From: Candidatus Moraniibacteriota bacterium
GTDB lineage: Bacteria; Patescibacteriota; Minisyncoccia; Moranbacterales; UBA1568
DNA: 64,000 nt
NCBI GenBank assembly: GCA_016699975.1
Contig: CP064994.1
Coordinates: 554,167 to 618,166, forward strand
Direction: 5' to 3'
Part shown: positions 26,411-58,253 of the stretch, in pieces
Layout: the number at the start of each line of letters is the position of its first letter
How positions within the stretch are numbered: position 1 is the first letter of the stretch
The notes under the pieces: generated by a model
The model's database searches: none
What the model was told of the DNA's origin: nothing
Seen by the model: only the letters and a program-made list of their open reading frames with translations
Made by a program: the position numbers and the translations under genes

Positions 26411-27582
26411 ATGAAGATTCTTCTTCACAATTATGAATATCCACCGCTTGGCGGGGGAGCAGGGAATGCGACCGAATACCTCTTGAAGGAATTCGCGAAA
26501 TTTTCTGATATAGAGGTGACGGTAGTGACGTCGTCAATCGACGACGTGCACCGTATTGAGTATCCAGCTCCGCACATTCGGATCGAGCGTCTCCCGGTTG
26601 GCAAAAAACCGGCGCGAAAGATCTTCACTTTCAATCGAAGAAAAATTTGGTTGCGTACGCCTGGAAGTCCTGGTTGTTTTCCCGCAAGATTCTCCGCCAG
26701 GAACGATTTGATCTTTTGCACGCATTCTTCTCGGTGCCCTCGGGGTTTGTGGCGCTCCTCCTTCGTCTTGAGTTCGGCGTACCTTTTCTGGTGTCGCTTC
26801 GCGGTTCCGATGTTCCGGGCTACAGCGAGCGCTTCAAAAACATGTACCCGCTTCTTCGCCCGGTGACACGATCTATTTGGCGACATGCTGCGCGTGTTAT
26901 CGCAAACAGTGAGGGCCTTCGCACGCTCGCGCTCCTTACTGATGCTTCTCGCGATATTGCCATTATCCGAAACGGCGTTGATACCGAAGAATTCTTCCCC
27001 GTGCCGCGCGAGTATACGGCTCGTCCCGAAGTTCCGTTTCGCATTCTGGCGATCGCGCGTCTTACGCCGCGAAAGGGTTTGCGAACGCTTCTCGAAGCGA
27101 TGCTCATCCTTCAAAATCGCAAGCAACGAGTTTTTACACTCGATATCGCCGGAGACGGGGACGAGCGCCTCATGCTCGAAACCTTTGTTCGTGAGAAAGG
27201 GCTCTCCGATCGCGTGCGATTTCTCGGGCGCGTGCCACACCGCGATATTGTGCCGCTCTACCATCGCGCACACGTGTATGTGCTCCCCTCCTTAAGCGAA
27301 GGAATGAGCAACAACGTGCTCGAGGCGATTGCCTCCGGGCTCCCCATTATTACGACGGATACGGGTGGCACGCGCGAATTGGTCGAGGAAGGACGAAACG
27401 GATGTGTGATCAGAATGAACGATCCCGAGCACATTGTGGAGAAGATCGTCTTTCTTGCCGAGCATCCCGAGCAGGCCCGGCTTTATGGTATGGAGAGTCG
27501 TCGGCGAGCGCTCGAACTTGGGTGGGTCGAAGTAGCAAAATCATACAGAAAAGCCTACCAAGATATCACCAAAAGCTCATAA
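26411..27582 (+). CDS. Glycosyltransferase family 4, frame broken in a poly-A tract (26604-26609 or 26641-26645; apparent 1-nt deletion)
   Basis: Frame A gives the N-terminus MKILLHNYEYPPLGGGAGNATEYLL.... Frame B from about 26650 gives ...KILRQERFDLLHAF...PFLVSLRGSDV...LPSLSEGMSNNVLEAIASGLPIITTD. Adding one A restores a continuous GT4. Confidence 0.7.
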
Positions 27583-27611
27583 AAATTTTTTGTGAGGATT
27601 GTCTCAATCGT

Positions 27612-28591
27612 ATGCTGCTCGAAACGAAAAAATCCGAAAAAAGAAAGCCCTTGTCTTTTGCTTTCAAGCTCTTGGTATCAGTCGGATTTGTGTCATGGCT
27701 TCTCTTTCGTCTCGACTGGACGGACGTCATGAAGCGGATTTTGGAAGTTGATGGAAACTATCTTCTTCTGTATCTTGCCCTTCTTCTTTTCGGAATGTTT
27801 CTTTCTGCAAAAAAGTGGCGACTCCCTGCTCAGCATAAAGGCTTTGCTCGTCCGCAAGGCGATTTCTTCCAGGCGTATTTGACGGGCGCCTTTATCAATA
27901 ATTTTTCCCTTCCACCATTGGGGGCGATACGTATCGTGCTCTGTGGCTCGGTCGCCGAGACGGAAAACTTTCGCCTGCGATTTCGACGGTGCTTATCGAC
28001 CGATTCACAGGGCTGTGGGCTGCCATGGTGCTCGCTCTCTTTTTTTCGCTCTTTCATTGGGAGCTTGTGCTCGCGCATCCTTTTTGGCTATTTTTAAACG
28101 CGCTTATCGTCGTTTTGCTCATCCTTGATTTTCTACCTCTTCTGCTGCGGAAAATTCCCCGCGCGAAAAAATGGATCTCCCTGTTGCCGGAAAAAATTTT
28201 GCATCTCATTGGCGAACTGGGGAGCTATCCCTTTCGGAAAGTTATGGTGCCGGCACTTTTTCTTTCGCTTGTTTTTAATTTCGTAGGCGTCGGCCTTTCG
28301 AATCTCGTGCTTTTCCGGGCGCTGGGCGGAGGAGTGGAGCTCTTTGAATATTTGAGCGTCATTTTTTTGATTACGATCGTCTCGAGTATTCCAATAAGTA
28401 TAAATAACATCGGTCTCAAAGAATGGGCGTACGCGGTGTTTTTTGGGTATCTTGGAGCCTCGGTCGAGGCAGCGGTCACGGTTGCCTTGGTGAGCCGGAT
28501 CCTCCAGATGTTTGTGAGCTTTGCGTCTCTTCCTTTTTATCTGCGTTCCCGGGATCTTTTAGGACGAGAACAAGAAGGAGGAAGGCGCTGA
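27612..28591 (+). CDS. UPF0104 / lysyl-PG-synthase-TM-region-like flippase-like membrane protein, frame broken at T5 27902-27906
   Basis: Frame A: MLLETKKSEKRKPLSFAFKLLVSVGFVSWLLFRLDW...AFINNF. Frame B continues FFPSTIGGDTYRALWLGRRDGKLSPAISTVLIDRFTGLW..., which I recall as the PF03706 consensus. Adding one T joins them. Confidence 0.6.
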
Positions 28592-28713: not shown

Positions 28714-30612
28714 TTATTGCTCTTCTTGAAAGATGCGATCAACGCGTATCACTTTCACAAAGTTAACGCTTCGGTTTCCGAGTATCTCGGTAAATTCGGC
28801 AGGCGCCTTTTCGTATGCGTCTTTAAAATTGATTGGAACAGAAGTGGAGAGCCACATGTTCACGGTTTTTCGCTTGCGACCCGTCGAGAGTACCACATAG
28901 TCGGGAATATTTTCTTTGAATCGCTTCTGATTGAAACTCACTGAGCAGTCTCCGATAAACGCTGCGCATACCGCGCCTTTGTCGGACCACACGCGAATAT
29001 TTCTCGCGTCGGGAAGGGCATTCAAAAATTGTGCGGCTTCGTAACTTCCGTCGCCCATATCTTTGAAATTCAGGATGAAGCGTTTCGGGAGAAGTGAGGA
29101 AGCGGACGCAAGATAGTGGGGCCGAACTGACACAAGATTCGCAGCGAGAATGAGGATCAAAAGCCCGGGCAAGAAGACGCGGGCGAGAAGCAACCGAGTG
29201 GAATGGAATTGCGCGCATCGCTCGCTCAGGAATTCGAGCAGTATCGCCGCTCCGATTCCGGAAAGAATGAATGCGAGGGGAAAAAGGGCGATTTGGTAGC
29301 GAACGGTCGCAATGACATAGTTTGCGGTTGAGCCGAGATAGTAGAGAAGGATGAAGAACGTGAAAGCAAGAACGGGGACCTGATATCGGCCGAAGCGGTG
29401 CTTGAAAAAGAGCAGCGTGCCGAGTGTGCCCAGCAAAAGAAAGAGTGCGATCGGGTGTATGCCGAAGATGAGGCTGTACACATCAGCAAGGAGGCTTCCG
29501 AAATTTTTGAGAAGGGTTGCACTCGCTTCGGAATTCTTCGGAGACATGACAAAGGCTTCGAGGTCGAACCACCGCATTCCAAGCCATGTATTCGCGAGTG
29601 TGAGCAAGATGAGACCGAAAAAAATACCAAGAATTGCTTTTGAGAGAGTGGAGCGAAAGCGCGAAAAGATTCGAAGAACACGTTCCGAAACGACGCCACG
29701 GAGAAGAAAAGCATCGACCAGGAGAAAGAGAATGACGCCCGCAAAAAGTGGCCAGGTGCTTTTGAAGGCCGCCGAGAGGAGGGTGCCTTCGAGAATCATT
29801 TCTGGCTTTACCCAGGTCGCGGGGTAGAGAAGGGTAAAGGTGAGAATCGATACCAAGACGAGAATGAAGAGATCACGGAGGGTATTTTTGAGGAATTGCT
29901 GAGGATCGGGTTTTTTCTCGGCAAAAAGGTATTCGAGAAACGGAAACAGGAGAAAGAAAACGAATAGAATATTCGCCACATATTTGGTAAGGAGGGAGAG
30001 CCCGGTCGAGATGCCCGCGATGATGAGATATTTTCGTGACGATTTTGTACCGGAGGCGAGGCGCGCGAGAATGGCGATCGGAAGAAAAATAAAGAGGAGC
30101 GAGTCCGGATTGATGATGAGTGACATGCCGAGAAGAATCGGGGAAAGGCCGATCAGGATGGTCGAAAAAATCGCGACCGTGGCACCGATTGCGGCTCGTA
30201 TGAGGAGATAGAAAACAGGGAGAGCGAGCAGGGAAAAGAGATAGAGAGGAAGACGAAATGCGATATTGATCGTGTCGAAGGCGGCGAGTTCTTGGGGCGT
30301 TTTCGGTTCTTCCCGGAGCGGCTTGTAGGGCATTGGGTCTATCTTGAGGAGGCCGAAGCCGGAAAGCTCCGCGACGGTAATGCCGGGCTTGTCGTTGATA
30401 TCGGTATTCTTCCATTTTGCACTTCGAACAGCGCGCCAAAAGTCAGGTGTTCGCTCGAATGTCCAGTAGGGTTCATCGACGGCGGAATAGGTGCCAAGTC
30501 GGGGAAGTCCGAAGGCAAGGTTGATAGCGATGACGACAACGAGAATGAAAACATGCGCCGCATTTTTGCTCCGAAGCGCTGCAAGGATTCTCATCGAAAA
30601 GGGGGAGTTCAT
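28714..30612 (-). CDS. ArnT/PMT-like glycosyltransferase (GT39/GT83-type, GT-C fold) membrane protein
   Basis: 632 aa, at least 12 TM helices. N-terminal loop ...YSAVDEPYW...DKPGITVAELSGFGLL... resembles PMT_2/ArnT motifs. Soluble C-terminal about 150 aa. Confidence 0.65.
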   Translation of the reverse strand: MNSPFSMRILAALRSKNAAHVFILVVVIAINLAFGLPRLGTYSAVDEPYWTFERTPDFWRAVRSAKWKNTDINDKPGITVAELSGFGLLKIDPMPYKPLREEPKTPQELAAFDTINIAFRLPLYLFSLLALPVFYLLIRAAIGATVAIFSTILIGLSPILLGMSLIINPDSLLFIFLPIAILARLASGTKSSRKYLIIAGISTGLSLLTKYVANILFVFFLLFPFLEYLFAEKKPDPQQFLKNTLRDLFILVLVSILTFTLLYPATWVKPEMILEGTLLSAAFKSTWPLFAGVILFLLVDAFLLRGVVSERVLRIFSRFRSTLSKAILGIFFGLILLTLANTWLGMRWFDLEAFVMSPKNSEASATLLKNFGSLLADVYSLIFGIHPIALFLLLGTLGTLLFFKHRFGRYQVPVLAFTFFILLYYLGSTANYVIATVRYQIALFPLAFILSGIGAAILLEFLSERCAQFHSTRLLLARVFLPGLLILILAANLVSVRPHYLASASSLLPKRFILNFKDMGDGSYEAAQFLNALPDARNIRVWSDKGAVCAAFIGDCSVSFNQKRFKENIPDYVVLSTGRKRKTVNMWLSTSVPINFKDAYEKAPAEFTEILGNRSVNFVKVIRVDRIFQEEQ

Positions 30613-30756: not shown

Positions 30757-32274
30757 ATGGCGCAATCCGGAAATACCAAAAACAAAGAGGATCGAAAGCG
30801 ACTGCTCTCCTCACGTTCTCTTCGAAAGTTTGTAGGCTCTGGGGATCAACCGGCTCTTGTGGGTATCTTTGCTGTTCTTCTCCTTGGATTTGTTTTTGCA
30901 GTATTTGAGATTTTCACAACGTCGTCGTTTTCCGTCGATCCTCCGGCACTTGCCAAAGAGCGTGAACGCAAGAGGTTCGCAGCCGATGTGACGACTCCGA
31001 TGCCCGAGGTGCCGTTTTCAATGCCGAAAATCGTCGAGCCCTCGTTTCCTGATCGCGACTGTCCCATTACGGAATTTGGTGCGGTTCCGGGCGGAAAAGT
31101 TTTGAATACCGAAAGCATTCGAAAGGCGATTGCATCGTGTGAACAAAAGGGCGGTGGGCGCGTAGTTGTGCCGAAAGGTCTCTGGCTTTCGGGCGCGATT
31201 CATTTAAAAAGCAATATCAATCTCCATGTTGAGGCTGGCGGAAAAATTCTTTTTTCAAATGATCTTTCGGAGTATCTTCCCCCGGTCTTTTCGCGATTCG
31301 AGGGTATTGAGCTCATGAACTATTCGCCGTTTATCTATGCGAGAGATGCAACGAATATTGCGATAACGGGAGACGGAGAGCTCGATGGGAATGGGAAAAT
31401 GTGGCAAGACTGGAACAAAGTTCAAGAGCCTTCGCTTCTTCGGCTTGAGAAGCTCGCCGACCAAGGAGCACCGCTTGCGGAGCGGAACTTCGCTCTTGCT
31501 GAAGATGCGCTGCAGCCGTCCTTTGTGCAGTTTGTGCGTTGTCGGAATATTCTTCTCGAAGATATAAAAATATCGAGGAGTCCGAGTTGGACGATTCACC
31601 CTGTGTATAGTTCCGATATCACGGTTCGTCATGTGGAAGTGTATACCGATGCGAGGAATACCGACGGTATTGCGATCGACTCGTCGCGAAACGTCGTTGT
31701 TCATGACTCAATTTTCCGCGCGGGAGACGATGCGATCGTGATCAAATCAGGAAAAGATAGAGATGGACTTCGGGTTCGAGAGGCATCGGAAAATATTGTT
31801 ATTCATGACGTGACGGTCGAAGATGGTCATGGCGCGATTGCCTTCGGAAGCGAAATGTCCGGCGGCATACGCAATGTCTTCGTCAAAAATCTGACAGCGA
31901 CTCGTGCGGACTTTGGCATTCGGTTCAAAAGTATGCGCGGGAGAGGGGGAGTGATCGAGGATATAACGATTGAGAACATGAAGATGGGACGATCGGTCTA
32001 TGAAGGCATCCAAGTTGATATGGATTACGGAACGCCGCTTCGCCCCGACGACACTTCGCTTTCTCCAATTTTTCGCGATATCACGGTTCGCAATCTTTCT
32101 ATCGATCGTGCGCGTACTGGTTTGAGAATTGTGGGACTCCCTGAAAGTCCGGTTGAAAATCTTATACTCGAGAACATTTCGATACAAGCTGAGAAAGACG
32201 GTGTGGCGCCAATTCATCTCAAAAACGAACAGTTCCGAAATGTGAATATTATCGTTCAGGATAGAAAGAAATGA
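30757..32274 (+). CDS. Glycoside hydrolase family 28 (polygalacturonase-like right-handed beta-helix) with N-terminal membrane anchor
   Basis: ...GAVPGGKVLNTESIRKAIASCEQKGGGRVVVPKGLWLSGAIHLKSNINLH..., NTDGIAIDSSRNVVVHDSIF, AGDDAIVIKSG, HGAIAFGSEMSGGIRNV: GH28 motifs (NTDG, G/QDD, G-HG, RIK-like). Confidence 0.8.
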   Translation: MAQSGNTKNKEDRKRLLSSRSLRKFVGSGDQPALVGIFAVLLLGFVFAVFEIFTTSSFSVDPPALAKERERKRFAADVTTPMPEVPFSMPKIVEPSFPDRDCPITEFGAVPGGKVLNTESIRKAIASCEQKGGGRVVVPKGLWLSGAIHLKSNINLHVEAGGKILFSNDLSEYLPPVFSRFEGIELMNYSPFIYARDATNIAITGDGELDGNGKMWQDWNKVQEPSLLRLEKLADQGAPLAERNFALAEDALQPSFVQFVRCRNILLEDIKISRSPSWTIHPVYSSDITVRHVEVYTDARNTDGIAIDSSRNVVVHDSIFRAGDDAIVIKSGKDRDGLRVREASENIVIHDVTVEDGHGAIAFGSEMSGGIRNVFVKNLTATRADFGIRFKSMRGRGGVIEDITIENMKMGRSVYEGIQVDMDYGTPLRPDDTSLSPIFRDITVRNLSIDRARTGLRIVGLPESPVENLILENISIQAEKDGVAPIHLKNEQFRNVNIIVQDRKK

Positions 32275-32311: not shown

Positions 32312-34309
32312 ATGAGACCTCTTCTTCGATGTTTCTCTCTCGAAGTTAAAAAATGCTCTTCTTTTTTATTGATGAGCGGGGGCGGGGGAGTCCGAAATCC
32401 GATTTTTCTTACATTGTTTATGGTTTCTTTCGGGAAACGATTTCTCTCTCCCAAGCTTGTGACGATACTTCTTCTCTGTGGTATCGTCGGCTCCGGATTC
32501 TTCCTTCGATTCGTACACTTTGACGAGTGGCTCTACTTTAAACTCGATCAGTCTCGGGATGCGATGCTTCTCTCGAGGGCAGTAGAGGAAGGTCCCCGAT
32601 ATCTGCCGCTTCTTGGTCCACGAGTCGGAGCAGTGACGCTTTCCGAAGGGCTTCTTCGCACCGGTCCTGCCTATTACTATTTGCAGTATCTTTCGGGCAC
32701 TCTTTCGCGCTCTGTCGAGCCACCGGTCTTTGCCTACCCGGATCTTTTTTTCGGCACCGCTTCTCTTGTCATCCTCTTTTTCTTTTCGAGACTTTTTTTT
32801 CGTCGTTCAACCTCGCTTCTTGTTGTCGCGCTTCTCTCTGGCTCATTTCTGGCGATCCAATATTCACGCTTTGCCTGGAATCCAAACCCGCTCCCATTTT
32901 TTTTGATGGTGTCTTTCTTCGGACTCCTTCGTTTTTTGCATGCTCCTTCTGGGTGGAAGCGATACGGATTTCTTCTTATTTTTTTTGTCGGCTTTTCGGG
33001 AGCGGCACAACTTCACTATTTCGGCATGATGAGTCTTCTCGGGATTATTACTCTCTCTTTGGGATGGCACTTTGCTCTGTGGAAACCTGACTCGTGGAGG
33101 CGTATTTTTTCTCGATCGGCTTTCCGCTCGGCACTCCCCGTTTTTGGCATGGGTTTTCTTATTCTCCTTTTCTTCTTTTCGCCCATGATTATAAGCGACG
33201 TCATGCGAGACGGGCAGAATACCAGAAACTTCTTCGAAGCCTTGATCGCAAAGCAAGATGCGAAGCCTCTCACGAACCGTCTTGAAGAAGCATTCTTCGA
33301 GACTCCGCGGTACTTGTGTCTTCTTTCGACGGGATTCTGCCTGAAAGAAGGCGAGCCCGAAAATATCCCCCCTCTTCTTTTGACGCTTCTTCTTTTGGGT
33401 GCGGGAGGAGGAATCGCTTTCCAGAGGCTGAGAGGAATGTCCGAAGGCATTCGCAAGGATTTCTTGCGGCTTCTCCTGGTGTGGATCGTAGTTTTTTGCG
33501 CGCTTTCCATTCCTGTTGCCTTTCAATTGCGACCGAGATTTTTTCTTGTCGTGCTTCCGATCCCGTTTCTCTTCTTTGGTCTTGTATTTGAATTTCTCCG
33601 GGAGCGATGGAACGCCTCTGGCCTTGTCTTCGGCACACTCCTCTTCATTCTTCTTCTTACGATGAATCTCTTCGGTGTCTCAAAATGGTTTCTTGAGCAA
33701 GCGGCTGCGCAGCGAGGCGATGCGCCCGTTTCGCGAACGCTGATTCTCAAAACCAAGGATGGCGTGACACTCGGACAACTGAGGCGTGCGGCGCACTTCA
33801 TGAAAACGCGCCTCCTTCCGGAAGAGCGCCTCTATTTTTATGTGAAGCCGGAGCACATCGCTCCCATAGAATATCTTCTTCGACTTTCTGCGAAACAACA
33901 GCCGGAACTGGTTTTTCGGAATATGCAAAAAGTGCCAACCGATCCCAAGGCGCGATTTTTTGCAATTCTCGCAACGGGTCGTGATCCCGAAGTGTCGCTC
34001 CGCGAGAAATTTGGCCAACCCGTAACGATTCGAGATGCCCAGTCGGTCGGGCAGATAACGGTCTTCGAAATCGATTTCCCACAACGGATGATCGATCCGG
34101 CATTCGAGTGGTTGAACGCGGCCCCGCTCGAATCGAGTGCTCTTTTGCTCGACGAAAAACGAAAGTCAAGCGATCGCGTTTTCTGGGGAGAAGCTGTCTC
34201 CCGCTTCTTGAATCGAAATGAAAAGACCCCGCCCTCTCATGACCCCTCTTTTCCTGAGGGGACGGAAGAAGATTTGTCGAATGAAACTTCCGAAGTGAAT
34301 ACTCCCTGA
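32312..34309 (+). CDS. GT-C-fold membrane protein, ArnT/PMT-like, tandem paralog 1 of 3
   Basis: Shared motifs with paralogs 2 and 3: F..DQ(S/A/I)RDA..., LLGP..GG..R.GP.YYY, RF(A/S)WNPN, QLH(Y/F/T)F. The true start may be an internal Met (32372 or 32420). Confidence 0.6.
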   Translation: MRPLLRCFSLEVKKCSSFLLMSGGGGVRNPIFLTLFMVSFGKRFLSPKLVTILLLCGIVGSGFFLRFVHFDEWLYFKLDQSRDAMLLSRAVEEGPRYLPLLGPRVGAVTLSEGLLRTGPAYYYLQYLSGTLSRSVEPPVFAYPDLFFGTASLVILFFFSRLFFRRSTSLLVVALLSGSFLAIQYSRFAWNPNPLPFFLMVSFFGLLRFLHAPSGWKRYGFLLIFFVGFSGAAQLHYFGMMSLLGIITLSLGWHFALWKPDSWRRIFSRSAFRSALPVFGMGFLILLFFFSPMIISDVMRDGQNTRNFFEALIAKQDAKPLTNRLEEAFFETPRYLCLLSTGFCLKEGEPENIPPLLLTLLLLGAGGGIAFQRLRGMSEGIRKDFLRLLLVWIVVFCALSIPVAFQLRPRFFLVVLPIPFLFFGLVFEFLRERWNASGLVFGTLLFILLLTMNLFGVSKWFLEQAAAQRGDAPVSRTLILKTKDGVTLGQLRRAAHFMKTRLLPEERLYFYVKPEHIAPIEYLLRLSAKQQPELVFRNMQKVPTDPKARFFAILATGRDPEVSLREKFGQPVTIRDAQSVGQITVFEIDFPQRMIDPAFEWLNAAPLESSALLLDEKRKSSDRVFWGEAVSRFLNRNEKTPPSHDPSFPEGTEEDLSNETSEVNTP

Positions 34310-34397: not shown

Positions 34398-36076
34398 ATG
34401 AGATCGCCTATGAACCCACATGAAGAAAATGGTTTGCGATACAAAACGATATTTTTCTGGGGAATATTTTTTGTGATGCTTTTTGGCGCCGTATTTGTGC
34501 GAACGACGCACTACGAAGAATGGATGATTATTAAGTCCGATCAGATTCGCGACGCGATGGTGTCTCTCAAGGTGCTTGAAAACGGATTCGGAGAACTCCC
34601 GCTTTTTGGCCCGAGAGCCGGCGGGACACACTTGCGGCTTGGTCCAATATTCTACTATTTTCAAACTGCTTCAGCTCTGCTTTTCCATTCCGCTTCTCCA
34701 GGAGTGCTTGCGCTTCCCACGCTTCTTTTTTCGCTTCTCTCGATCCCGCTCTTTTTTCTCATGGCGAGAAGGCTCTTTTCCCGGAATCTTTCTTTGATTC
34801 TCACGATCGTGTTTTCGTATGGATTCCTCGCGATTGAGCATGCTCGTTTCTCCTGGAATCCGAATTCCACAACTTTTTTTACCCTTCTCTTTCTCTACTC
34901 GTTTCTGCGGATTCTGGCGGACGATACGCCGAAAAAACTGTGGTGGTATGCAGCGCTCGGTCTTTCTTATGGTGTTGTTTCACAGCTCCACTTCACGGTT
35001 CTTTTGGCACTTCCTTTGTTTATTGCGTTCTTTGCGATTTTTCGACCGAAGCGAGTGTGGCGCGTTTTGTCGTGGAAGGGAGTCGCGATATTTTTGGGCG
35101 TCATTCTCCTTCTCTACACGCCTGTCTTTGTAAGTGAAGTCCTGAGCGGGGGGAAGAATGCGTCGGAAACCTTTGCCGCGGTTGCGGAGAAGGGATCCGA
35201 GAAAACACTGATCGGAAATGTTCGTCGTGTCCTCAAAAATTTCGGCGAATATTTTTTCCGTATCGGTTTCGGATATTTCGGAGGGCCGCGCCCGTTTCAG
35301 TATGCGGGGATCGCGCTCCTGGGGAGCGGTCTCTTTCTCTCTCTCTTCTTATTTCGAAAAGAGAAAGACGAATCTCGTCGGGATGTTTTTTTGGCGATTC
35401 CGATTTTGCTTGCAACGTTTTTCTCCTCTTCCTTCCGATTGCAACGACGGTGGACAAACCGCGATTTTTTCTCCCGCTTCTCTTTGTGCCGACCATTTTT
35501 TTCGGTATGATAACGTGTCTTACATTCTCCGGAAAAATCCGGTTCTTCCCCACGATTCTTGCTGCGCTCTTCCTGGGAGCGAGCCTCGGATCCAATATGT
35601 TCTTTACCTACCAGTGGCTTTCCGAGATCCGTCATTCAACACATCGGTACGTCTCTGCGAAAAAGGATACCGTGGTACTCAAAATGAAAAAGGATGACAT
35701 GTGGTGGTCTTGGGAACAAATTCACGGCGCGGTCGAATATATGATACGAGATTGTCCCAATGAAAATATTCTCGTACAGTACAAAGGGCAGGCGGCCGAC
35801 TTTATGCACACCACGCTCTACGCCTTTCGTCTCGCGGGAGACGATCGTATTCGTCGATCGACCACCTACGAAGGACCAAGTTTTTGCCGCTACGCTCTCA
35901 CCAAGTCGAAGCCGGGTGAAAATCCCGATGACGATCAGTGGGATATCGGCGATCTGCGTATTCTCGCTCTCGAGAAGCGCGGAGGGAGTTTCGATACCAG
36001 TATCTATGGAAAAGGAGAGTCAGAAGAAGAGCCTTCGAAAAACAAATTCGAGTACTGGAAGGACGTTACCCGCTAA
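34398..36076 (+). CDS. GT-C-fold membrane protein, tandem paralog 2, frame broken at T5 35417-35421
   Basis: Frame A runs to ...ILLATFF. Frame B continues LLFLPIATTVDKPRFFLPLLFVPTIFFG, which parallels paralog 1 (...AFQLRPRFFLVVLPIPFLFFG). Adding one T joins them into about 559 aa. Confidence 0.6.
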
Positions 36077-36190: not shown

Positions 36191-37810
36191 TTGAACATTT
36201 TTTCTATGCATGATTTTTTTTCGCGCTTTCGAAAGGGAGGCATTCGTTTCGATTCCACTCAAGTGGCGTTCATTGCTATTCTTTTTGTCGGAGCATTTCT
36301 CCGGATGTATGAATTTCACGATTGGCTTCGATTTAATCCCGATCAGGCTCGAGATGCGATCGTTGCCTTCGACATGACCACGGGAAAGATCCCGCTTTTG
36401 GGGCCGGTTGCCGGCGGAACCGAGTTTCGATTGGGGACTGTTACGCACTACTTCTCTTTCCTCTCGGGGACGCTCTTCGGCTTTTCTCCGAGTGCCTTGG
36501 CGTATCCGGATCTTTTCTTCTCCATCCTGTTTCTCCCGCTCCTCTTTTTGCTGGTATCGAGAATGTTTGGGACGCGTATCGCACTTTCGGTGATGCTGCT
36601 CGCTGCTCTCTCGGGCTATATGGTGCGCTATGGTCGTTTCGCGTGGAATCCGAACTCCATGCCGTTTTTTACGACGCTCTTTTTCTTGTCGGCGCACAGC
36701 CTTCTTTTTTCTGAAGGAAGGAAGAAATTGCTGTGGGCTGCGCTCTTTGGGATATCAATAGGCATCGGCGTGCAACTCCATACCTTTCTCTTGGTGCTCC
36801 TGCCGATTCTCGCGCTCTTCGTTTTCGTTTTTCTTTTCTTGCAGAAAAAACTTTCTGTTCTCGTGGCAGTCATTTCTCTTTCATGTGCAATATTTCTCAA
36901 TATCCCGCAAATCATTTCCGAGGTTCAAACGAAAGGGATGAATACGAACGCTTTCTTTAATGGAGTAGGAAACAGAACTGAAAGTACGCGCACAGTGAGT
37001 GAGCGGGTGGGACGAGACGCGCTGTGTCATGTGCGATCGAACGCCTTTATTCTGACGAGTCTTGGCCACAGCGATAACTGTAATCGGTTTATCGCACTCA
37101 TGAAAAGGAAGTTTCCCATGACGCATCCGCTTGATATTGTGCACGCGATTCTCGAGATTGTGTTTACCGTTGGAGGAATATTTCTCCTCGGCTTCTTCGC
37201 ATGGAAGGAAACGCGCCTCGAAAAGCGATTTCTCTTTGTCGGAGTGCTTGTATTCATGGTGGCGCTCTTTCTTCTTATCATCCCCGTTTCCAATGAAATC
37301 GCAATGCGGTATTTCTTAGCGTCCGCATTTGTTCCCTTTGTGCTTCTCGGCGCGTGGGGAAAATTTCTCTTCGAGCGCGGGAGGTGGGGTATTGCGACGT
37401 TTGTTCTTTTTGTCTCACTCCTTCTCTTTTTGAACGCGCTTTTCTTGAAGAAAGAGGCAGCGCTCTTTGCGAGCGGTCGCGTGAGCGACGCAGATATGGC
37501 CATTCTCGGTGAGACGGAGCCGCTTGCCGAGTTTCTCTCGCGGCATACTCCTTCTCAAGGAACCGCGCATCTTATCGGCATGAGGAGCTATCGAAAGCGT
37601 TTTCACAAAGCGCTTGCGTATCCTCTTCACCTCGAGGGGAAGAAGCTTCTTCGCTTCGAAAAAAAGGGAATGCCCGAAAAATCAGGGCCCGTTTTTCTTA
37701 TTCGGAAGAAAACAAAATCGTACGATGCCATGAGTGAAATCGACGGCATGCCAATTCTTGATCGAAAAACGAGCGGGCGCGTGAGTGTTTTCCTTCTGAG
37801 ACGAGAATGA
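36191..37810 (+). CDS. GT-C-fold membrane protein, tandem paralog 3
   Basis: 539 aa with the same motif set (NPDQARDA, LLGPVAGGTEFRLG, RFAWNPNS). Its stop overlaps the SET gene start (ATGA at 37807-37810). Confidence 0.65.
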   Translation: MNIFSMHDFFSRFRKGGIRFDSTQVAFIAILFVGAFLRMYEFHDWLRFNPDQARDAIVAFDMTTGKIPLLGPVAGGTEFRLGTVTHYFSFLSGTLFGFSPSALAYPDLFFSILFLPLLFLLVSRMFGTRIALSVMLLAALSGYMVRYGRFAWNPNSMPFFTTLFFLSAHSLLFSEGRKKLLWAALFGISIGIGVQLHTFLLVLLPILALFVFVFLFLQKKLSVLVAVISLSCAIFLNIPQIISEVQTKGMNTNAFFNGVGNRTESTRTVSERVGRDALCHVRSNAFILTSLGHSDNCNRFIALMKRKFPMTHPLDIVHAILEIVFTVGGIFLLGFFAWKETRLEKRFLFVGVLVFMVALFLLIIPVSNEIAMRYFLASAFVPFVLLGAWGKFLFERGRWGIATFVLFVSLLLFLNALFLKKEAALFASGRVSDADMAILGETEPLAEFLSRHTPSQGTAHLIGMRSYRKRFHKALAYPLHLEGKKLLRFEKKGMPEKSGPVFLIRKKTKSYDAMSEIDGMPILDRKTSGRVSVFLLRRE

Positions 37811-38562
37811 GTCCAATATCTTCACCAATTTCTCCTGTTGAGCGAATCACTCCGGCGCTTTTACGGATACGGCCTTCTCAGAAATTTGGCGGTATTGGCG
37901 TGTTTGCTCTTCGTGATATTCCAAAAGGAACGATTCTCTCTCGTGCTGCCTTTCTTCCGAAAGAGCGTTTTCTTTCGTGGAAAGCGTTTCGAAAATTGGA
38001 TGAGATTACCCAGGAATTTGTGCGAAACTTCTGTGCGCACACAAAGCGGGGCGTCTCTCTGCCAGCCGATCTCAGTACGTTGCCCATCGTGTTTCATATG
38101 AATCACCACTGCCGTGGGAACGTGGGCTCCGATGAAGCGGGAAATTTTCTTGCGATTCGAAAAGTGCGCTGCGGCGAAGAGTTGTGTTTCGATTACGCCC
38201 TCGTTATTTCGGATCCTAAATATCGGTTGATATGTCGTTGTGGTGACCCATTGTGTCGAAAAGTAATAACCGGAAACGATTGGAAGGATCCCAATTTTCT
38301 GGAGAACAATTATCGGTATATGTCTCCTGTGCAACGCGCGCTTGTCGATGCGGCGCTTCACCTTGACTCAGAACCTTCTTCCGAATTCTCCATTTCCGAT
38401 CCTTCTCTTCACAGAAGAGGAGGTCGTTCTGCGCTTGAGGCGAAGAGGAAAGACAAATCGGCTCGGAAAAAGTTTGTTGAATTTTTCGCCTCCAATCGGA
38501 TCCTACGTTGTTTCGGGCGTACTTTTTTGTACGTGAAAGTTACGGGCGTGAATCTTCGTTGA
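37807..38562 (+). CDS. SET-domain protein (putative protein-lysine methyltransferase) with basic C-terminal tail
   Basis: GGIGVFALRDIPKGTIL...FHMNHHCRGNV...CGEELCFDYA...CRCGDPLCRKVI: SET core (G.G.FA, NHxC, ELxxDY) plus post-SET Cys cluster. Translationally coupled to the upstream GT-C paralog. Confidence 0.75.
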   Translation: MSPISSPISPVERITPALLRIRPSQKFGGIGVFALRDIPKGTILSRAAFLPKERFLSWKAFRKLDEITQEFVRNFCAHTKRGVSLPADLSTLPIVFHMNHHCRGNVGSDEAGNFLAIRKVRCGEELCFDYALVISDPKYRLICRCGDPLCRKVITGNDWKDPNFLENNYRYMSPVQRALVDAALHLDSEPSSEFSISDPSLHRRGGRSALEAKRKDKSARKKFVEFFASNRILRCFGRTFLYVKVTGVNLR

Positions 38563-40066
38563 TATCTAAAGAGGGAGCTTTGGTGTTTTCCTTGGAAGAA
38601 CCCTTCTTTCTTCTTAGTAGGGAAGAAAGAAGAGCAATATCTTCTTCGGTAAGGATACGGGCAGAGAAGAGGAGGAGGAGAAAGAAACCTCCGAGCCCTG
38701 CCGCAACAAAGAAGGAGGAGAACGTGTCAAACGAAAACGGAAGCGTTGAAAGAAAGAGGAGAAAGCAAAGCAGCATGAAGACAGACACCTTTTTTGTGTG
38801 GAAGGGCGTCTTGACAAAGCGCTGCATGAGAAAAAATGTCGAAACTGTCACGATGAAGGAGCTTATGGTGACGGCCCAAGCGGACCCCACGATGCCGAAC
38901 CGAGGAATCAAGATCCCATTGAGGGTCGCATTGAGGAGTGTGCCGAGGAGTGCGATTCGAAGCGGAAGGCGCGAGTGCCCGAGGCCGATCAATCCTGAAG
39001 ACAGAGTGTAAAAGACGGTGAGAAGTGAGAGTCCGAAAACGAGGACACGAAAAGTATCGGCCGCTTCGGAATATTGGTTCCCGAAGAAGAGGGTGAGGGC
39101 GGGATGAGCTGCGGCCGAGAGCAGGATAGCAAGGGGCAGAAGAATAATCCCCGAGTATCGAAGGGCCTGCGACATGAGTGCTGATACTTTTTCGGGATTC
39201 CCTTCACTTTTTAGTTTGGCGAGTGCGGGAAGGAGGACGATGGAAAGAGCATAAAAAAGAAAGTATGGGAGACGAGCAAGATTGAGAGCGGCATTATAAA
39301 GACCGGTTTGTCTATCGTCTTCTAGCATCACTTGAACCAGATAGAGATCGATCGAAATGAAAATCTCATAGAAGAGTAAAAAGAGCGTAATGGGCCATGA
39401 GGCGACGAGGAGTGTGCGAAAGGGGAAGGTGAGGGGAGTTTCTTCTTTTCTGTTTGATCGAAATGCCGCAGAAGTTTTCCAGTCAAAAAATAAACCGAGA
39501 AGAAAGGTGAGGAATGGCACTATAATATAGCCTGCGATCGCGCCGGGAAGTTTGAAGGAAATGATGAGGGGAACCGTGATAGCAATACGGAGAATTGAGC
39601 GGGTCATTTTGAGAACGGCTTGTATGTCGAATCGGTGAATGCCGGTAAAGTGATAGAAATAGATAGACGAAGCGGCGAATGCTGGAATAATGAGAGAGGA
39701 AAGACGAAGAAGTGGTTTGAGCGCGGGGTCGCCGAGCATAAGGGCAGTAAATGGCGCAAGGAGAAAGAATACTCCCGTCACAACCGTGATAAGAGCGGCC
39801 TGGAGAAGAGCGGCGGTTTTTTGTATGGCGCGTACGGAAGTAGGACTCCCTTCAAAGTGTTCGCTCAAATATCTCGACATGGCGGTCGGGATGCCGTTTC
39901 CAATCAAGATAATGAGTGTGGTAGTGAGGGTGATAACAAGCCCATATCGGCCGTAGTCGGCAGGGCCGAGCACGCGTCCCGAAACGGCGTGGATCACATA
40001 GCCCGAAACATTGAAGAGGATTTCGGCAACAGTAAGGAGAAAAACGGGTTTTGCGAGTGTTGACAT
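38540..40066 (-). CDS. Oligosaccharide flippase (Wzx/MOP superfamily)
   Basis: 508 aa, about 14 TM helices, N-terminus ...LTVAEILFNVSGYVIHAVSGRVLGPADYGRYGLV.... Converges on the SET gene. Confidence 0.7.
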   Translation of the reverse strand: MSTLAKPVFLLTVAEILFNVSGYVIHAVSGRVLGPADYGRYGLVITLTTTLIILIGNGIPTAMSRYLSEHFEGSPTSVRAIQKTAALLQAALITVVTGVFFLLAPFTALMLGDPALKPLLRLSSLIIPAFAASSIYFYHFTGIHRFDIQAVLKMTRSILRIAITVPLIISFKLPGAIAGYIIVPFLTFLLGLFFDWKTSAAFRSNRKEETPLTFPFRTLLVASWPITLFLLFYEIFISIDLYLVQVMLEDDRQTGLYNAALNLARLPYFLFYALSIVLLPALAKLKSEGNPEKVSALMSQALRYSGIILLPLAILLSAAAHPALTLFFGNQYSEAADTFRVLVFGLSLLTVFYTLSSGLIGLGHSRLPLRIALLGTLLNATLNGILIPRFGIVGSAWAVTISSFIVTVSTFFLMQRFVKTPFHTKKVSVFMLLCFLLFLSTLPFSFDTFSSFFVAAGLGGFFLLLLFSARILTEEDIALLSSLLRRKKGSSKENTKAPSLDINEDSRP

Positions 40067-40125: not shown

Positions 40126-40779
40126 ATGAAGAATGAACCGGGAATCATGTTTCGCCTGGCAGCCAACATACTAATATGGTACAGCCTGTTGGCTTTTCTC
40201 TTCTCAGTCATGTTGTTTTCTTCTGGGAAGATTTACTCTGATTCGGAGCGTATGGTTCGTTTGGCGTCTCCCTTGTTCTTTTCTTCAGTTCTAGTGCTCT
40301 TCGCGGCAGCTCTCCTTGCTGGTCTTTCTTCCGTTATTTTACTCTTTATTGAGCTTCGATCTGGAGACCATAAGAAGAGCGAGTACGAAAGGAAATTCGA
40401 AAGAATCTTTCTGATAGGATTGATGTGTTTTTCGGGGGTATGCTTTTTATTCGCCCTCTGGATCTCTGGGCTCAATCTTTTGCCTGGGGAAGTACTCAAA
40501 AACACACTTTTTGTTTCCGGAGCAATAGTGGTATTTCCTGTCCTGGTAATCTGCTGTCGTGCCTTTGCGGTATGGCTTTGGAAGTATCTGATGAAACGGG
40601 AAAAAGTACGCACATTTCTGCTATTTTTTGTGATAGTACTTCTTTCTCCCATTCTCCTTCCATTTTTCGGATTCTGTATAATTCTCGTCTTTGTGGTAGT
40701 GGTGGTGGCACTTCCGATTTTTGCGCTCACCCCCCCCTCTTTTCGTGGCTTTGCACCAAGACGGATGAATACGCAGTGA
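40126..40779 (+). CDS. Hypothetical multi-TM membrane protein
   Basis: 217 aa with 5-6 hydrophobic helices. No family recognised. Confidence 0.45.
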   Translation: MKNEPGIMFRLAANILIWYSLLAFLFSVMLFSSGKIYSDSERMVRLASPLFFSSVLVLFAAALLAGLSSVILLFIELRSGDHKKSEYERKFERIFLIGLMCFSGVCFLFALWISGLNLLPGEVLKNTLFVSGAIVVFPVLVICCRAFAVWLWKYLMKREKVRTFLLFFVIVLLSPILLPFFGFCIILVFVVVVVALPIFALTPPSFRGFAPRRMNTQ

Positions 40780-41654: not shown

Positions 41655-43042
41655 ATGACACCACTCTCTCGCGGAATTTTTTTTCTCTTTCTTTTTCTCC
41701 TTCCTCTTCAAACAGTATGGATACTGAGGGAGGTGTCTCTTGATGGGTCCAAGTGGGAATATGGCACGATCGGAATTTTTGGAACGGACGTCGTGCTTCT
41801 CCTTTTCATGGTGACATTCTTGGGAGAGCGCATCTTTTCTTGGAAAAGAAACAATCCACGCTCTTTTTCATTTTCTTTTTTGTTTCGCGGCGTTATTGCG
41901 AAGGGCGCTCTCCTTGATGCGAGGACCCGTATTGTCTTCGGAAGTCTTGTTGCTCTTCTTGTGTGGAGCGCGCTTTCCATACTGTGGGCGGAAGACACGG
42001 TACTTGCCCGATATTTTTTCGTCAAGATGCTTTTTGCGGCGGGAGTATTTTTTGTGGCGCGGTCTCTTCGGTATCAATTCGCTTCATATGGAGCGCTCAT
42101 CCTTTTTGCGGGAGCGGTTCTTGAGAGTATGCTCGGGCTCTGGCAGTTTCTGTTGCAAGATACTATAAGGTCGACGATTTTTGGTATGAGTCATTTTGAG
42201 GTGTGGCGCCCCGGCGTCTCGGTTCTCAAAAACGAAAGCGGTCGGTGGCTTCGAGCGTATGGCTCCTTGCCGCACCCCAATATACTCGGGGGGATTTCTT
42301 GCCTCGACGCTCATTTTGGGCTGTTCTTTTGAGTGGTGCTCGTACCAAAACGCAGAGGATCACGATATTCATTTCCACTTTCTTTGTGGCGCTCGGCGTT
42401 TTGGTCACGTTTTCGCGCTCTGCTTGGTTGGGAGTATTCCTTGGAGTTATTGCCTTATCTTTTGGGGTGTTTCGCTGGGGAGAAAGTGCTCAGAAAAAAC
42501 ACTTCGCTCTGAGCTTTCTCCTCATAATGTGTGCTCTCCTTCCTTTCCTCTTCCTCTTTCGTGAGACGATATTTCCACGATTTGACTCGAAAACGATTGA
42601 ACGGGAAGGGTCTATATCGGAGCGGATTACTTCTTTGTATGACGCGAAGGAGGTGCTGAGCCGAGGAGATATCTTGATGGGAGTCGGAGTCGGAAATTTT
42701 ACGAATGCCGTTCACTCCCTTCATCCAACGCGACCGATATGGAGTGTTCAGCCGGCACACAACGTATTCCTCCTCGTGACGGCGGAAGGGGGGGTGCCTG
42801 GAGTCATTCTCTTTCTCCTCTTCCTGATATCAGCTACAGGCGCCATCCTTTCTGTCGGGAAAACAAAAAACCTTGAGAAGCGTCTTCTTTCTCTCACATT
42901 TTTTTGCGCGTTTGTTGCCCTTCTCCCGAGCTTCTTTTTGGATCACTTTTTATGGACTGCTCATTTTGGGATGCTGCTTCTCTTTTTCTTGCTGGGCGTT
43001 GTTTCAAAGAGTGAGTTTGATAAAGGCAAGGAGGTGTCGTGA
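41655..43042 (+). CDS. O-antigen ligase / Wzy-like polymerase family membrane protein, frame broken in G6 run 42288-42293
   Basis: Second half contains ...LVTFSRSAWLGVFLGVIAL..., a Wzy_C-like TfSRsawL motif. Multi-TM throughout. Adding one G joins the ORFs 41655-42332 and 42203-43042. Confidence 0.55.
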
Positions 43043-53492: not shown

Positions 53493-54602
53493 AGAGAAAC
53501 TAGGTGAATTCAAACCCCGAAGCCCCTTTTCTGGTATACTCCGGCGTTAACTTCCAAAAACGCTATGAATATGCCAAAAGGAACGTCCATAACCTTCTTT
53601 GAACGAGAGCGAATCGAAAGCTTTCTCCGCATGAAGAAAAAGAAAACATGGATCGCGGAGAAACTTGGAAGAGATTACTCCGTCATCAAGCGAGAGATAC
53701 GAAGAAATTCGAGTCCGCACCTTCCCTATGTTGCCATCCGAGCTGAAGCGTATGCGGAAAGACGAAAGAAAAATACCAACAAAAGAAAACTGGAAAAATG
53801 GCAAAACGAGAAACTGAAAAAGTTTGTCGAAAGCGAACTCCTGAAGGGACATTCACCGGAGCAGATAGCCGGCCGGTTGAAAACATCTCCTCCGAAAAAA
53901 TCTTTCCTCGTGTACGGATACCTCGATAAGTTACGAATCCATCTATGATTACATTTACCGCGGAGAAGGAAGGGTCGGCGGATGGTACAAACATCTGCGA
54001 CGAAAACAGAAGCGGAGACGACCAAAGTTCTCTCGAAAACCGCGAAAAGAGACGATTCCGGATAGAATACCCATTCACGAAAGACCCGCGGTCATTACCA
54101 AGCGTACACACTTTGGAGACTGGGAAACCGATTCCGTGATATTCTCAAAACAGAAGTCAGTACTCTCGGTACAGTACGAGCGAAAAATGAAGCTATGCCG
54201 ATTAAAGAAAGTTCCAAACAAAACAGCGGTCGAAAGCGAACGAGCGATACAGGGACATTTCTCTCGGCTTCCGCAGCAATTGAGGAGAAGTATTACGAGA
54301 GATAATGGAACGGAGAATGTTTTGCACGGAGAAACGAAACAAAAACTTTCTCTTCCTTCCTACTTCTGCGATACCTACAAAAGTTGGCAGAAAGGAGGTG
54401 TGGAAAACTTGAATGGATTGTTACGAGAGTATTTTCCGAAGAAATGCCCGTTTGATAAAATTTCCCAAAAAGAAGTTCGGTCAGTTCAGGACAAACTCAA
54501 CAATCGACCGAGGAAAGCGCTTAACTATTTGACGCCGAATGAAGTTTTTGCCAGGGTACTGGAAAAGGGGCATTAAATTCTTGAACTCACCCTATTTTTC
54601 AC
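53493..54602 (+). mobile_element. IS30-family insertion sequence (about 1.1 kb) with imperfect 20-bp terminal inverted repeats
   Basis: IRL gagaaactaggtgaattcaa (53493-53513) versus reverse complement of IRR gaaaaatagggtgagttcaa (54582-54602). Encloses an IS30 transposase. Confidence 0.65.
53565..54576 (+). CDS. IS30-family transposase (DDE), reading frame broken twice (near 53930-53950 and 54125-54140; both apparent 1-nt deletions)
   Basis: N-terminal HTH ...SVIKREIRRNSS..., GHSPEQIAGRL (WSPEQI signature), HFGDWETDSV, DNGTEN, YFCDTYKSWQKGGVENLNGLLREYFPK, LNNRPRKALNYLTPNEVF. Three ORFs lie in frames 0, 2, 1. Confidence 0.7.
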
Positions 54603-54752: not shown

Positions 54753-55139
54753 ATGAGTATGGATAAAAAAAATTGGTGGTTGTTCGGAATTTTCGGAGGA
54801 CTTCTCATTTTTGCTATCTTTTTCACCGCGGTCAAAATGTTTTTGTTGCGAGACTATTGGGTACAAGGAATGTCGCGATGCGATCCGAGTCGAGAACGGT
54901 GTTTTCTTCGTTCGTGCGAGAATGAAGAGTCAATGTGTCCCGAAGGAGTTTCGACGTTCTTTTACAAAATTGTACAGAAAAAAGCATATGCCGTTCGAGC
55001 GTGCCCGAGCGAGGAAAACGACTGCTCTTTACTTCGGTGTGAACCAGATGAAAAGGATTGCTTTGAAACGTTCTGTTCTTCCGATCATCCCGAAGATATT
55101 CCCGAAGGCGAGAGATGTAGTGAGGAAAAACAAGAATGA
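54753..55139 (+). CDS. Small membrane-anchored Cys-rich acidic protein (12 Cys in about 95-aa ectodomain)
   Basis: TM WWLFGIFGGLLIFAIFFTAV, then ...CDPSRERCFLRSCENEESMCPEG...CPSEENDCSLLRCEPDEKDCFETFCSS.... Confidence 0.4.
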   Translation: MSMDKKNWWLFGIFGGLLIFAIFFTAVKMFLLRDYWVQGMSRCDPSRERCFLRSCENEESMCPEGVSTFFYKIVQKKAYAVRACPSEENDCSLLRCEPDEKDCFETFCSSDHPEDIPEGERCSEEKQE

Positions 55140-58177: not shown

Positions 58178-58253
58178 TGGTGCGCTCGGCAGGAATCGAA
58201 CCTGCGGCCTTCTGGACCGGAACCAGACGCTCTCTCCACTGAGCTACGAGCGC
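58178..58253 (-). tRNA. tRNA-Arg (anticodon CCG), CCA-encoded
   Basis: GCGCTCGTAGCTCAGTGGAGAGAGCGTCTGGTTCCGGTCCAGAAGGCCGCAGGTTCGATTCCTGCCGAGCGCACCA. 7-bp acceptor, D-arm GCTC/GAGC, anticodon stem TCTGG/CCAGA, loop TTCCGGT, T-arm GCAGG TTCGATT CCTGC. Confidence 0.85.

Follow-up and report, generated by a model that had tools for sequence, protein, structure and literature searches.

SET-domain proteins of bacteria and archaea are already known (PMC3980110), and one bacterial SET-fold enzyme, BurB, methylates free methionine (PMC12542666). Work on bacterial SET proteins has so far dealt mainly with effectors that target host chromatin and with modifiers of the nucleoid. In membrane signalling, the HisKA_7TM domain (PF16927) is known as a sensor domain of bacterial and haloarchaeal kinases (PMC5847659). 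Here, we analyze a 64,000-nucleotide (nt) stretch of contig CP064994.1 from a Candidatus Moraniibacteriota bacterium (positions 554,167 to 618,166; hereafter, the window), which carries two SET genes, SET1 and SET2. The source organism belongs to the Candidate Phyla Radiation (CPR), and its genome is 1.05 Mb in size. SET1 overlaps a gene for a GT-C membrane glycosyltransferase, and SET2 lies between the genes for a seven-transmembrane (7-TM) protein, which we call MP, and a sensor histidine kinase. SET1 and SET2 themselves belong to a known kind of protein; the conserved cassette around SET2 is undescribed in the literature that we searched, which was incomplete and in which we found no papers linking SET proteins to histidine kinases, PQ-loop-like proteins, HisKA_7TM or CPR bacteria.

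We hold with moderate confidence that the SET protein of the cassette is an accessory enzyme of a sensor kinase at the membrane, and that the placement of SET1 next to a GT-C gene is peculiar to one species. The evidence comes from the SET proteins themselves, from gene order in their relatives, and from gene fusions.

SET1 (37807–38562, + strand) reads as a soluble SET and post-SET methyltransferase of 251 amino acids (aa) from a prokaryotic subfamily marked by the motif 'ITGNDWK', and SET2 (55828–56328, + strand; QQS20534.1) as a soluble SET and post-SET methyltransferase of 166 aa, which is named 'SET domain-containing protein-lysine N-methyltransferase' by NCBI and has an alternative open start, GTG, at 55804. 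Profile searches bore out the assignment of both proteins to the SET family in a preliminary description of this DNA, as both score above the PF00856 cutoff of 22.4 bits (31.2 bits for SET1 and 50.9 bits for SET2). In an alignment of 21 SET1 family members, the S-adenosylmethionine (SAM)-binding GxG motif (G29/G31), the NHxC motif (N99/H100/C102), and the ExxxDY motif (E125/D129/Y130) are invariant or nearly so, the TGNDW motif is invariant, and so are the post-SET cysteines C143, C145, and C150 together with C102 of NHxC. The corresponding SET2 residues (G16/G18, N75/H76/C78, and E101/D105/Y106) are likewise invariant or nearly so in the alignment of its family, and the post-SET segment of SET2 reads 'CSCGAKSCRK'. 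The solved structures closest to SET1 are the SET domains of MLL3, MLL4, and MLL1 (E-values of about 1e-7; MLL3, 1e-7), and the SET2 family profile matches the MLL1 SET domain with an E-value of 2e-23. An AlphaFold2 model of SET1 has an MLL-like SET fold, with a predicted local distance difference test (pLDDT) score of 86–96 in the core (residues 21–50 and 101–180) and disorder beyond residue 195. A Foldseek search with this model retrieved 283 PDB chains at E ≤ 1e-3, with matches to MLL4, MLL3, Set2, and BurB at about 1e-7; the 50 chains listed are all SET-domain methyltransferases (MLL, SETD2, NSD, ASH1L, and BurB among them). Both proteins are thus members of the SET family whose SAM-binding and catalytic motifs are intact and whose predicted fold is MLL-like, and SET1 is a genuine SET and post-SET methyltransferase that is probably active. 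Segment prediction found no transmembrane or signal-like segment in SET1 or SET2, and a search of NCBIfam with SET1, SET2, and MP returned no family.

The C-terminus of SET1 requires a correction. Four independent assemblies of the same species (loci labeled L010–L013) are 99.8–99.9 per cent identical to the window and differ from it almost only in 1-nt homopolymer lengths. Near position 38467, the window has a run of five A residues, and all four conspecific assemblies have six, which gives a 224-aa SET1 that ends in ...KSARKKVC near position 38480. The last ~29 residues of SET1 as read in the window, and its apparent overlap with a downstream flippase gene, are therefore probably the product of a frameshift, and the true length is probably 224 aa. 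Of the preliminary description of a 251-aa SET protein with a post-SET Cys cluster and a basic tail, the Cys cluster stands as an invariant feature, and the length probably does not. The basic tail holds ten Lys or Arg residues in positions 187–224, is not conserved, and is predicted to be disordered (pLDDT below 50). A homology search with SET1 found 25 relatives, mostly ~180–195 aa long, and because they cover only its first two-thirds, the tail is species-specific.

Contrary to the view that SET proteins are uncommon in bacteria, proteins of the SET1 and SET2 subfamilies are not rare: we counted relatives in at least 440 species-representative genomes and on at least 373 metagenome contigs. 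In the genome scan, SET1 relatives were found in CPR bacteria, Desulfuromonadales, Syntrophia, Bacteroidota, Anaerolineales, and DPANN archaea. Some of the SET proteins have other architectures, namely a tandem SET–SET fusion (L137:5974-6927), a SET protein with a C-terminal domain that reads by eye as a GNAT acetyltransferase (L087:3616-4683), and one with a long C-terminal extension (L073:7914-9227).

The second locus is a conserved four-gene membrane cassette that encodes a micro-protein, MP, SET2, and a 7-TM kinase. In the window, it consists, all on the + strand, of a gene for a small single-pass membrane protein with one transmembrane segment and a Cys-rich ectodomain (54753–55139; found with jackhmmer and a scan of intergenic open reading frames [ORFs]), the MP gene (55185–55820), which lies upstream of SET2, SET2 itself, and the gene for a 7–8-TM sensor histidine kinase (56391–58073; HATPase_c 84.1 bits, HisKA 60.4 bits, and HisKA_7TM 23.1 bits against a cutoff of 28.6). 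The preliminary description had coupled SET2 to a polytopic membrane protein and missed the kinase, which directly follows SET2 and belongs to its conserved partners. MP and SET2 overlap by 17 nt if the GTG start is used and are otherwise separated by a gap of 7 nt; the kinase gene begins 62 nt downstream of SET2. In about 25 cassettes (the gaps of L094–L144 among them), the interval from SET to the kinase encodes the micro-protein, a single-pass transmembrane protein of 46–70 aa with the motif MDKKSK-[TM]-YRYIVxxDFxxFTDEE. Its homologous counterpart in the window, a transmembrane segment followed by 'LLRDYWV', forms the N-terminus of the longer Cys-rich ORF at 54753–55139, upstream of MP. Long Cys-rich or acidic versions of the micro-protein also occur at L060, L100, and L119.

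MP has a confident predicted model (pLDDT 90.6) of seven helices in the 3+1+3 arrangement of the PQ-loop/SWEET/KDELR fold. None of 17 members of its family has a Pfam match, even at E ≤ 5, and the family comprises 5,895 clusters at 50 per cent identity (E ≤ 1e-3, representative library). When the positive-inside rule is applied to the model and the alignment, the conserved motifs 'YIPY..KT.P..W' and 'PTIRK..P.E' and the C-terminus of MP are placed in the cytoplasm. In the kinase, the phospho-acceptor H340 of HisKA and N461, D488/G490/G492, and G520/G522 of the N and G boxes are invariant among 33 aligned sequences. Within its 7-TM sensor region, C8, Y29, W76, and W88 are invariant in the window protein and 32 homologs, and Y28, W68, and C147 are nearly so, a pattern that suggests a ligand site and perhaps an extracytoplasmic disulfide.

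We scanned metagenomes with the SET2-family alignment (at least 373 relatives, 80 loci) and identified neighboring genes with local hidden Markov models (HMMs). Adjacency was counted where each flank extended for at least 700 nt, with relatives scored as close (at least 190 bits) or distant (below 190 bits). The recurrent order is a ~200-aa MP homolog, then SET, then a 550–570-aa kinase with 7–9 transmembrane segments. Among close relatives of SET2, the kinase adjoins SET at 19 of 23 loci, MP at 18, and both at 16; the corresponding numbers for distant relatives are 2, 4, and 2 of 18. Overall, about 44 loci carry a SET gene and a full-length kinase homolog on the same strand, at most 262 nt apart. 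SET1's own subfamily holds the SET position beside the same kinase family in other CPR lineages, where 535–613-aa histidine kinases with ~9 transmembrane segments (HisKA_7TM weak, HisKA, and HATPase_c) are encoded directly beside SET. Full-length identity to the window kinase is 39–41 per cent for kinases encoded next to SET2-type genes and 29–35 per cent for those next to SET1-type genes, and the SET–kinase linkage therefore survives both deep divergence and a swap of the SET subfamily. At a locus from a Spirochaetales metagenome-assembled genome, SET is paired with a HisKA_7TM-PAS kinase whose HisKA_7TM score of 44.1 bits exceeds the Pfam cutoff. A jackhmmer search started from CheY found no receiver-domain gene in the 64-kb window, and of 44 cassettes, 42 lack one in their flanks. 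When 150 genes around 25 cassettes were tallied by Pfam domain, no clear pathway emerged: most of these genes are housekeeping genes (aminoacyl-tRNA synthetases, DnaJ), and the top non-housekeeping domain is that of class-I methyltransferases (8/150). Tandem duplicated SET genes were seen upstream of the kinase at three loci (L023 [L023:2172-3257], L101, and L131).

Domains of the SET1 and SET2 subfamilies are repeatedly adjacent to membrane proteins or fused to them, and the fused membrane domains are of three unrelated kinds. First, the C-terminus of MP is fused to a SET2-type domain in L145, P0227, and P0305. Second, a 4-TM domain with the motif '..SAEK.TDALDEDDV.K..' is fused to SET1-type domains in L031 (Micrarchaeota), L034 (Kryptoniota), L037 (Bacteroidetes), and P0019, and it is encoded by a separate, overlapping gene upstream of SET at L045, L050, L052, and L057. 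Third, a DUF4760-like protein with one or two transmembrane segments is encoded upstream of SET at five deltaproteobacterial loci and is fused to SET in L029. The earlier proposal that SET enzymes pair with integral membrane partners consequently holds well for SET2 and family-wide, by adjacency and by fusion, and fails for SET1 and its GT-C neighbor.

We propose that the SET proteins would dock to polytopic partners and work at the cytoplasmic side of the membrane, and that the cassette enzyme may be an accessory of a complex of the 7-TM sensor kinase and MP. Using SAM, the enzyme would methylate an amine; the simplest acceptor would be a lysine residue, located on the kinase, on MP, or on a client that the two recruit. 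Such methylation would tune signaling or the state of the envelope, and the logic would be a functional analog of receptor methylation by CheR, with another chemistry and another fold. SET1 would be a second paralog of this membrane-associated family, transcribed with envelope glycosylation genes, and its target need not be the GT-C protein.

Several observations weigh against this proposal. Contact between SET and either kinase or MP is something that we infer from gene order and fusions. Alignments of 33 kinase and 32 MP sequences contain no invariant lysine that would mark an acceptor; K135 of MP is invariant only in a closer set of 17 sequences. Part of the CPR gene order is inherited synteny, so that the ~44 pairs are not 44 independent events and the counts are inflated. 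A response regulator is encoded 1.5–3.4 kb away at two loci (1.5 kb at the P0013 locus). MP is also fused to STAS, TPR, SUKH-1, and pyrophosphatase domains, to a PrmA-like class-I methyltransferase (P0241), and to LPG_synthase_C (P0249), and given these non-SET fusions it may be a generic anchor. Finally, the closest relatives of SET1 are found among soluble nucleotide house-cleaning genes and not among membrane genes, and because of these neighborhoods a membrane role for SET1 is an extrapolation from the wider subfamily.

A broader formulation of the same idea is more speculative, and we put it forward only tentatively. CPR bacteria and some other prokaryotes might possess an unrecognized membrane signaling module, in which a SET enzyme docks on a SWEET/PQ-loop-like 7-TM protein and on a 7-TM kinase that lacks a response regulator. 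The enzyme would methylate either the sensor complex, in a lysine analog of chemoreceptor adaptation, or an amine lipid or amino acid displayed by the 7-TM protein, such as lysyl-phosphatidylglycerol, and SET1 would be a second, envelope-directed output of the module.

The main alternative, which we regard as unlikely, is that SET acts on a small molecule or on the head group of a lipid and not on a protein. Under this explanation, an amine, for example a basic amino acid or the lysyl-phosphatidylglycerol made by LPG_synthase_C, would be imported or presented by MP in the role of a PQ-loop-type transporter or flippase. SET would then N-methylate this amine, and the kinase would read the state of the envelope or of the metabolite that results. 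BurB, which methylates free methionine (PMC12542666), ranks among the best sequence and fold matches of both SET proteins, and the fold of MP matches those of the transporters cystinosin and SWEETs. LPG_synthase_C and PrmA-like methyltransferases, both found fused to MP as SET is, also occur beside SET. A stand-alone LPG_synthase_C gene lies directly upstream of the SET and kinase genes in L036 (L036:6925-7827) and in L048/L049 (L048:6932-7834) and less than 1 kb from SET in L020/L022 (L020:6943-7851) and L017 (L017:2179-3123), and in L119 (L119:5135-5974), the gene immediately preceding SET encodes a PrmA-like methyltransferase. These associations hint at a guild of lipid- or amine-modifying enzymes. 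The locus of SET1 in the window itself also contains an LPG_synthase_TM gene (27402–28591), ~9 kb upstream of the SET gene. Against a small substrate, both subfamilies retain the full set of lysine-methyltransferase motifs and the post-SET zinc cluster, their best matches are MLL-type protein methyltransferases, and of 69 species-level loci, only about 5 have LPG_synthase_C close to SET. Furthermore, the STAS, TPR, and SUKH fusions of MP point to signaling and not to metabolism, and we know of no methylated lysyl-lipid, although no search aimed at one was made.

It is improbable, in our judgment, that SET1 is a stand-alone housekeeping methyltransferase, its membrane neighbors being incidental, and that it acts on a soluble protein, for example of the ribosome, the translation machinery, or the nucleoid, in the manner of Methanosarcina Go1-SET or the chlamydial SET protein. 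The neighborhoods of its closest relatives (51–58 per cent identity) speak for such a role, as they hold pyrophosphatase, NUDIX, Ham1, HD, dCMP deaminase, and SecA genes. At 58 per cent identity, P0004 has NUDIX, pyrophosphatase, dCMP deaminase, and HD genes; at 57 per cent, P0002 has pyrophosphatase, NUDIX, and CYTH genes with Ham1 upstream, and P0003 has NUDIX; at 56 per cent, P0008 has a UMPH-1 nucleotidase; at 55 per cent, P0011 shows the order SecA–SET–ASCH–NUDIX; at 54 per cent, P0005 has pyrophosphatase, NUDIX, and Ham1; and at 51 per cent, P0014 has NUDIX, Cu-oxidase_4, and HAD. The remaining relatives are P0013 (51 per cent), in which SET overlaps the gene for a 563-aa histidine kinase, followed by Ugd and a response regulator; P0015 (48 per cent), with a 245-aa gene of no known family upstream; P0016 (47 per cent), with an HU gene 1.2 kb upstream and a second SET gene downstream; and L015 (44 per cent), from another member of Moraniibacteriota, with a gene for a 609-aa kinase downstream. 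The HU gene and the basic tail of SET1 also count in favor of this role, as does the methylation of chromatin-like proteins by SET proteins of archaea and chlamydiae (PMC3980110). However, the tail is neither conserved nor predicted to be ordered, and the wider subfamily repeatedly overlaps or fuses with membrane proteins and the kinase in many phyla. NUDIX-rich neighborhoods are, moreover, generic in CPR genomes. In several CPR loci, a family of 245–265-aa proteins without a Pfam match is encoded directly upstream of SET1-type genes (L024:7208-7990, L174:4263-5000, and a 265-aa gene upstream of P0013); the L024 and L174 proteins are 33 per cent identical.

The preliminary description had treated SET1 and its GT-C neighbor as a functional pair. 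The GT-C gene in question (36191–37810, + strand) is the third of three tandem paralogs of the PMT_2 type and encodes 539 aa with ~9 hydrophobic or transmembrane segments. Its PF13231 score only just exceeds the threshold (27.5 against 26.1 bits; the PMT_2 paralogs score 34.5 and 41.2 bits), and in L010 it is called as a 534-aa PMT_2 gene, the start in the other assemblies being the ATG at 36206. As described, its TGA stop and the ATG start of SET1 overlap in an ATGA at 37807–37810 (context gaATGAgt), and a 4-nt overlap implies co-transcription. SET1 is the last gene of a same-strand string that starts with a GH28 glycoside hydrolase (30757–32274, + strand; Glyco_hydro_28 116.9 bits) and continues with the first (32312–34309, + strand; intact as a 645-aa gene in L010), the second (34398–36076, + strand; 370-aa and 208-aa ORFs in the window, intact as 555 aa in L010), and the third GT-C gene, the first two of which have PMT and PMT_2 matches. 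A dedicated, translationally coupled pair, in which SET1 would methylate the GT-C protein or its envelope or secreted glycoprotein substrates, would fit this overlap, the position of SET1 at the end of the string inside an envelope polysaccharide locus, and the stability of the arrangement in the four other same-species assemblies. Two Anaerolineales loci, in which SET is followed by a gene for a 10-TM protein at gaps of −4 and 59 nt, could be counted in its favor because of a weak similarity to PMT_2.

The arrangement is identical, however, only in L010–L013. A survey of gene adjacency among relatives, which the preliminary description had named beforehand as able to refute its proposal, found that the SET1–GT-C arrangement is not conserved and that the SET2–MP arrangement is: none of the 11 non-conspecific close relatives of SET1 (45–58 per cent identity) has a GT-C neighbor. 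We also surveyed 80 genome loci from the at least 440 genomes with SET relatives. A local HMM built from the four GT-C paralogs of the window gave 13 matches, none adjoining SET, whether counted over the 80 genome loci or over 69 species-level loci, its sensitivity being limited; given this limit, the neighbors of SET were additionally screened by number of transmembrane segments and by Pfam. The Anaerolineales neighbors were rejected as a second SET–GT-C case, as their PMT_2 scores (16.9 and 21.8 bits) are below the cutoff of 26.1 and they lack profile similarity to the GT-C genes of the window (hhalign probability of 0.2 per cent). The 6-TM genes upstream of SET at these loci are ordinary ABC permeases. 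ATGA overlaps are common in the window, where they join 4 of 34 same-strand neighbor pairs. In addition, GT-C catalysis and its products are extracytoplasmic, and a SET enzyme needs cytoplasmic SAM. The overlap is a species-specific placement in a tightly packed genome and not a conserved system; the pairing is largely refuted by its non-conservation, and we consider a dedicated SET1–GT-C pair very improbable.

CPR bacteria are episymbionts with a host-dependent lifestyle, which counts in favor of SET proteins being exported into a host cell. We nevertheless find it hardly credible that SET1 and SET2 are effectors like Chlamydia NUE or Legionella RomA, although bacterial SET effectors exist (PMC3980110; PMC2904774), as neither protein has a predicted signal peptide or transmembrane segment, the family is widespread in free-living Desulfuromonadales, Syntrophia, Bacteroidota, and Anaerolineales and in DPANN archaea, and the coupling to an inner-membrane kinase and the fusion to the cytoplasmic C-terminus of polytopic proteins point to an intracellular role.

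The remaining features of the window concern mainly the envelope-glycan locus. In addition to the string that ends in SET1, it holds a fourth GT-C paralog (28714–30612, − strand; PMT_2 41.2 bits, PMT 35.8 bits), a Wzx/MurJ-type polysaccharide flippase convergent with SET1 (38540–40066, − strand; Polysacc_synt 90.2 bits, MurJ 46.9 bits; NCBI name 'flippase'), and genes for Wzy_C, GT4, and Ugd. After the first transmembrane segment, the translations of the three tandem GT-C paralogs read, by eye, 'NPDQARDA', 'KLDQSRDA', and 'KSDQIRDA', candidates for the acidic motif that GT-C enzymes carry in their first extracytoplasmic loop. The 1-nt homopolymer indels at ~27902, ~35418, ~38467, ~40730, and ~42288–42327 represent all indel differences from the four conspecific assemblies, and they split or extend the ORFs of LPG_synthase_TM, the second tandem GT-C gene (which is split near 35418, with five T residues in the window and six elsewhere), the SET1 tail, the ORF at 40126–40779, and Wzy_C (41655–43042). 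This pattern is typical of long-read consensus errors. The ORF of a non-discriminating aspartyl-tRNA synthetase (59563–60543) spans only profile positions 116–438, without the N-terminal anticodon-binding part, and may have a miscalled start or another frameshift. Around the cassette, broken remnants of an IS30-like transposase (HTH_38 and rve_3 fragments in separate ORFs) lie at 53565–54576, between the Ugd gene and the cassette, and a tRNA-Arg(CCG) gene (58178–58253, − strand) separates the kinase gene from that of a GT2 glycosyltransferase (58342–59130).

The practical message of the first locus is negative: to regard the SET–GT-C overlap as a system would be a mistake. The second locus carries the positive one: two SET subfamilies are tied, by gene order and by fusion, to polytopic proteins and to a sensor kinase in many uncultured lineages with minimal genomes, and genes retained in such genomes are likely important. 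If the link is functional, methylation of lysine or another amine would join the repertoire of bacterial transmembrane signaling or envelope remodeling, and a 7-TM family of ~5,900 clusters (50 per cent identity) without a Pfam model would gain its first functional handle.

Compared with described SET enzymes, SET1 and SET2 are most similar to KMT2/MLL (Trithorax), which provides the best matches in sequence and fold and shares with them GxG, NHxC, ELxFDY, and the CxCx4C zinc cluster of the post-SET region. Unlike MLL, they are minimal single-domain proteins of 166–224 aa without a WRAD-binding or chromatin-reader context, and after the post-SET region they carry additional C-terminal motifs, 'ITGNDWK' in SET1 and 'IIKxxQxLP...YLPxIPxYF' in SET2. 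The context of MLL also differs in that the source organism, a CPR bacterium, is not known to have histones. Chlamydia NUE/cpnSET, Legionella RomA, Bacillus BaSET, and Methanosarcina Go1-SET are likewise small prokaryotic SET methyltransferases (PMC3980110), but NUE, RomA, BaSET, and Go1-SET act on host histones or nucleoid proteins, and none of them is described with a histidine kinase or a polytopic partner. BurB, a 172-aa methionine S-methyltransferase (PDB 9L4T/9L4V), matches SET1 with E-values of 5e-5 in sequence and 1e-7 in Foldseek and the SET2 profile with 7e-13. It is not the top match, the likeness being one of general SET similarity, and it is encoded in the pathway of dimethylsulfoniopropionate (DMSP) and malleicyprol and not beside a kinase or membrane protein.

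The membrane partners resemble known families to varying degrees. MP has the same 7-TM fold as the PQ-loop/SWEET/KDEL-receptor superfamily, without a Pfam match at E ≤ 5 and with PY or PT in place of PQ in the proline motif. MprF carries a cytoplasmic LPG_synthase_C on a polytopic domain, as does the MP fusion P0249, but the fold of MP is unrelated to that of the membrane domain of MprF, and LPG_synthase_C is tied to SET by neighborhood only. The window kinase shares HisKA and HATPase_c, the invariant His, and the N and G boxes with HisKA_7TM kinases, and its N-terminal sensor of 7–8 transmembrane segments resembles HisKA_7TM, whose cutoff it does not reach (23.1 against 28.6 bits).

As a system, the cassette would work most like CheR/CheB, in that a methyltransferase using SAM is encoded together with the membrane sensor on which it would act, and the sensor in turn feeds a histidine kinase. 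Glutamate methyl esters are the product of CheR, a class-I Rossmann enzyme, whereas the cassette enzyme has the SET fold and presumably acts on lysine or another amine, and no demethylase or esterase is apparent. The cassette also departs from classical two-component systems, since 42 of 44 cassettes lack an adjoining response regulator and have the SET gene in the neighboring place.

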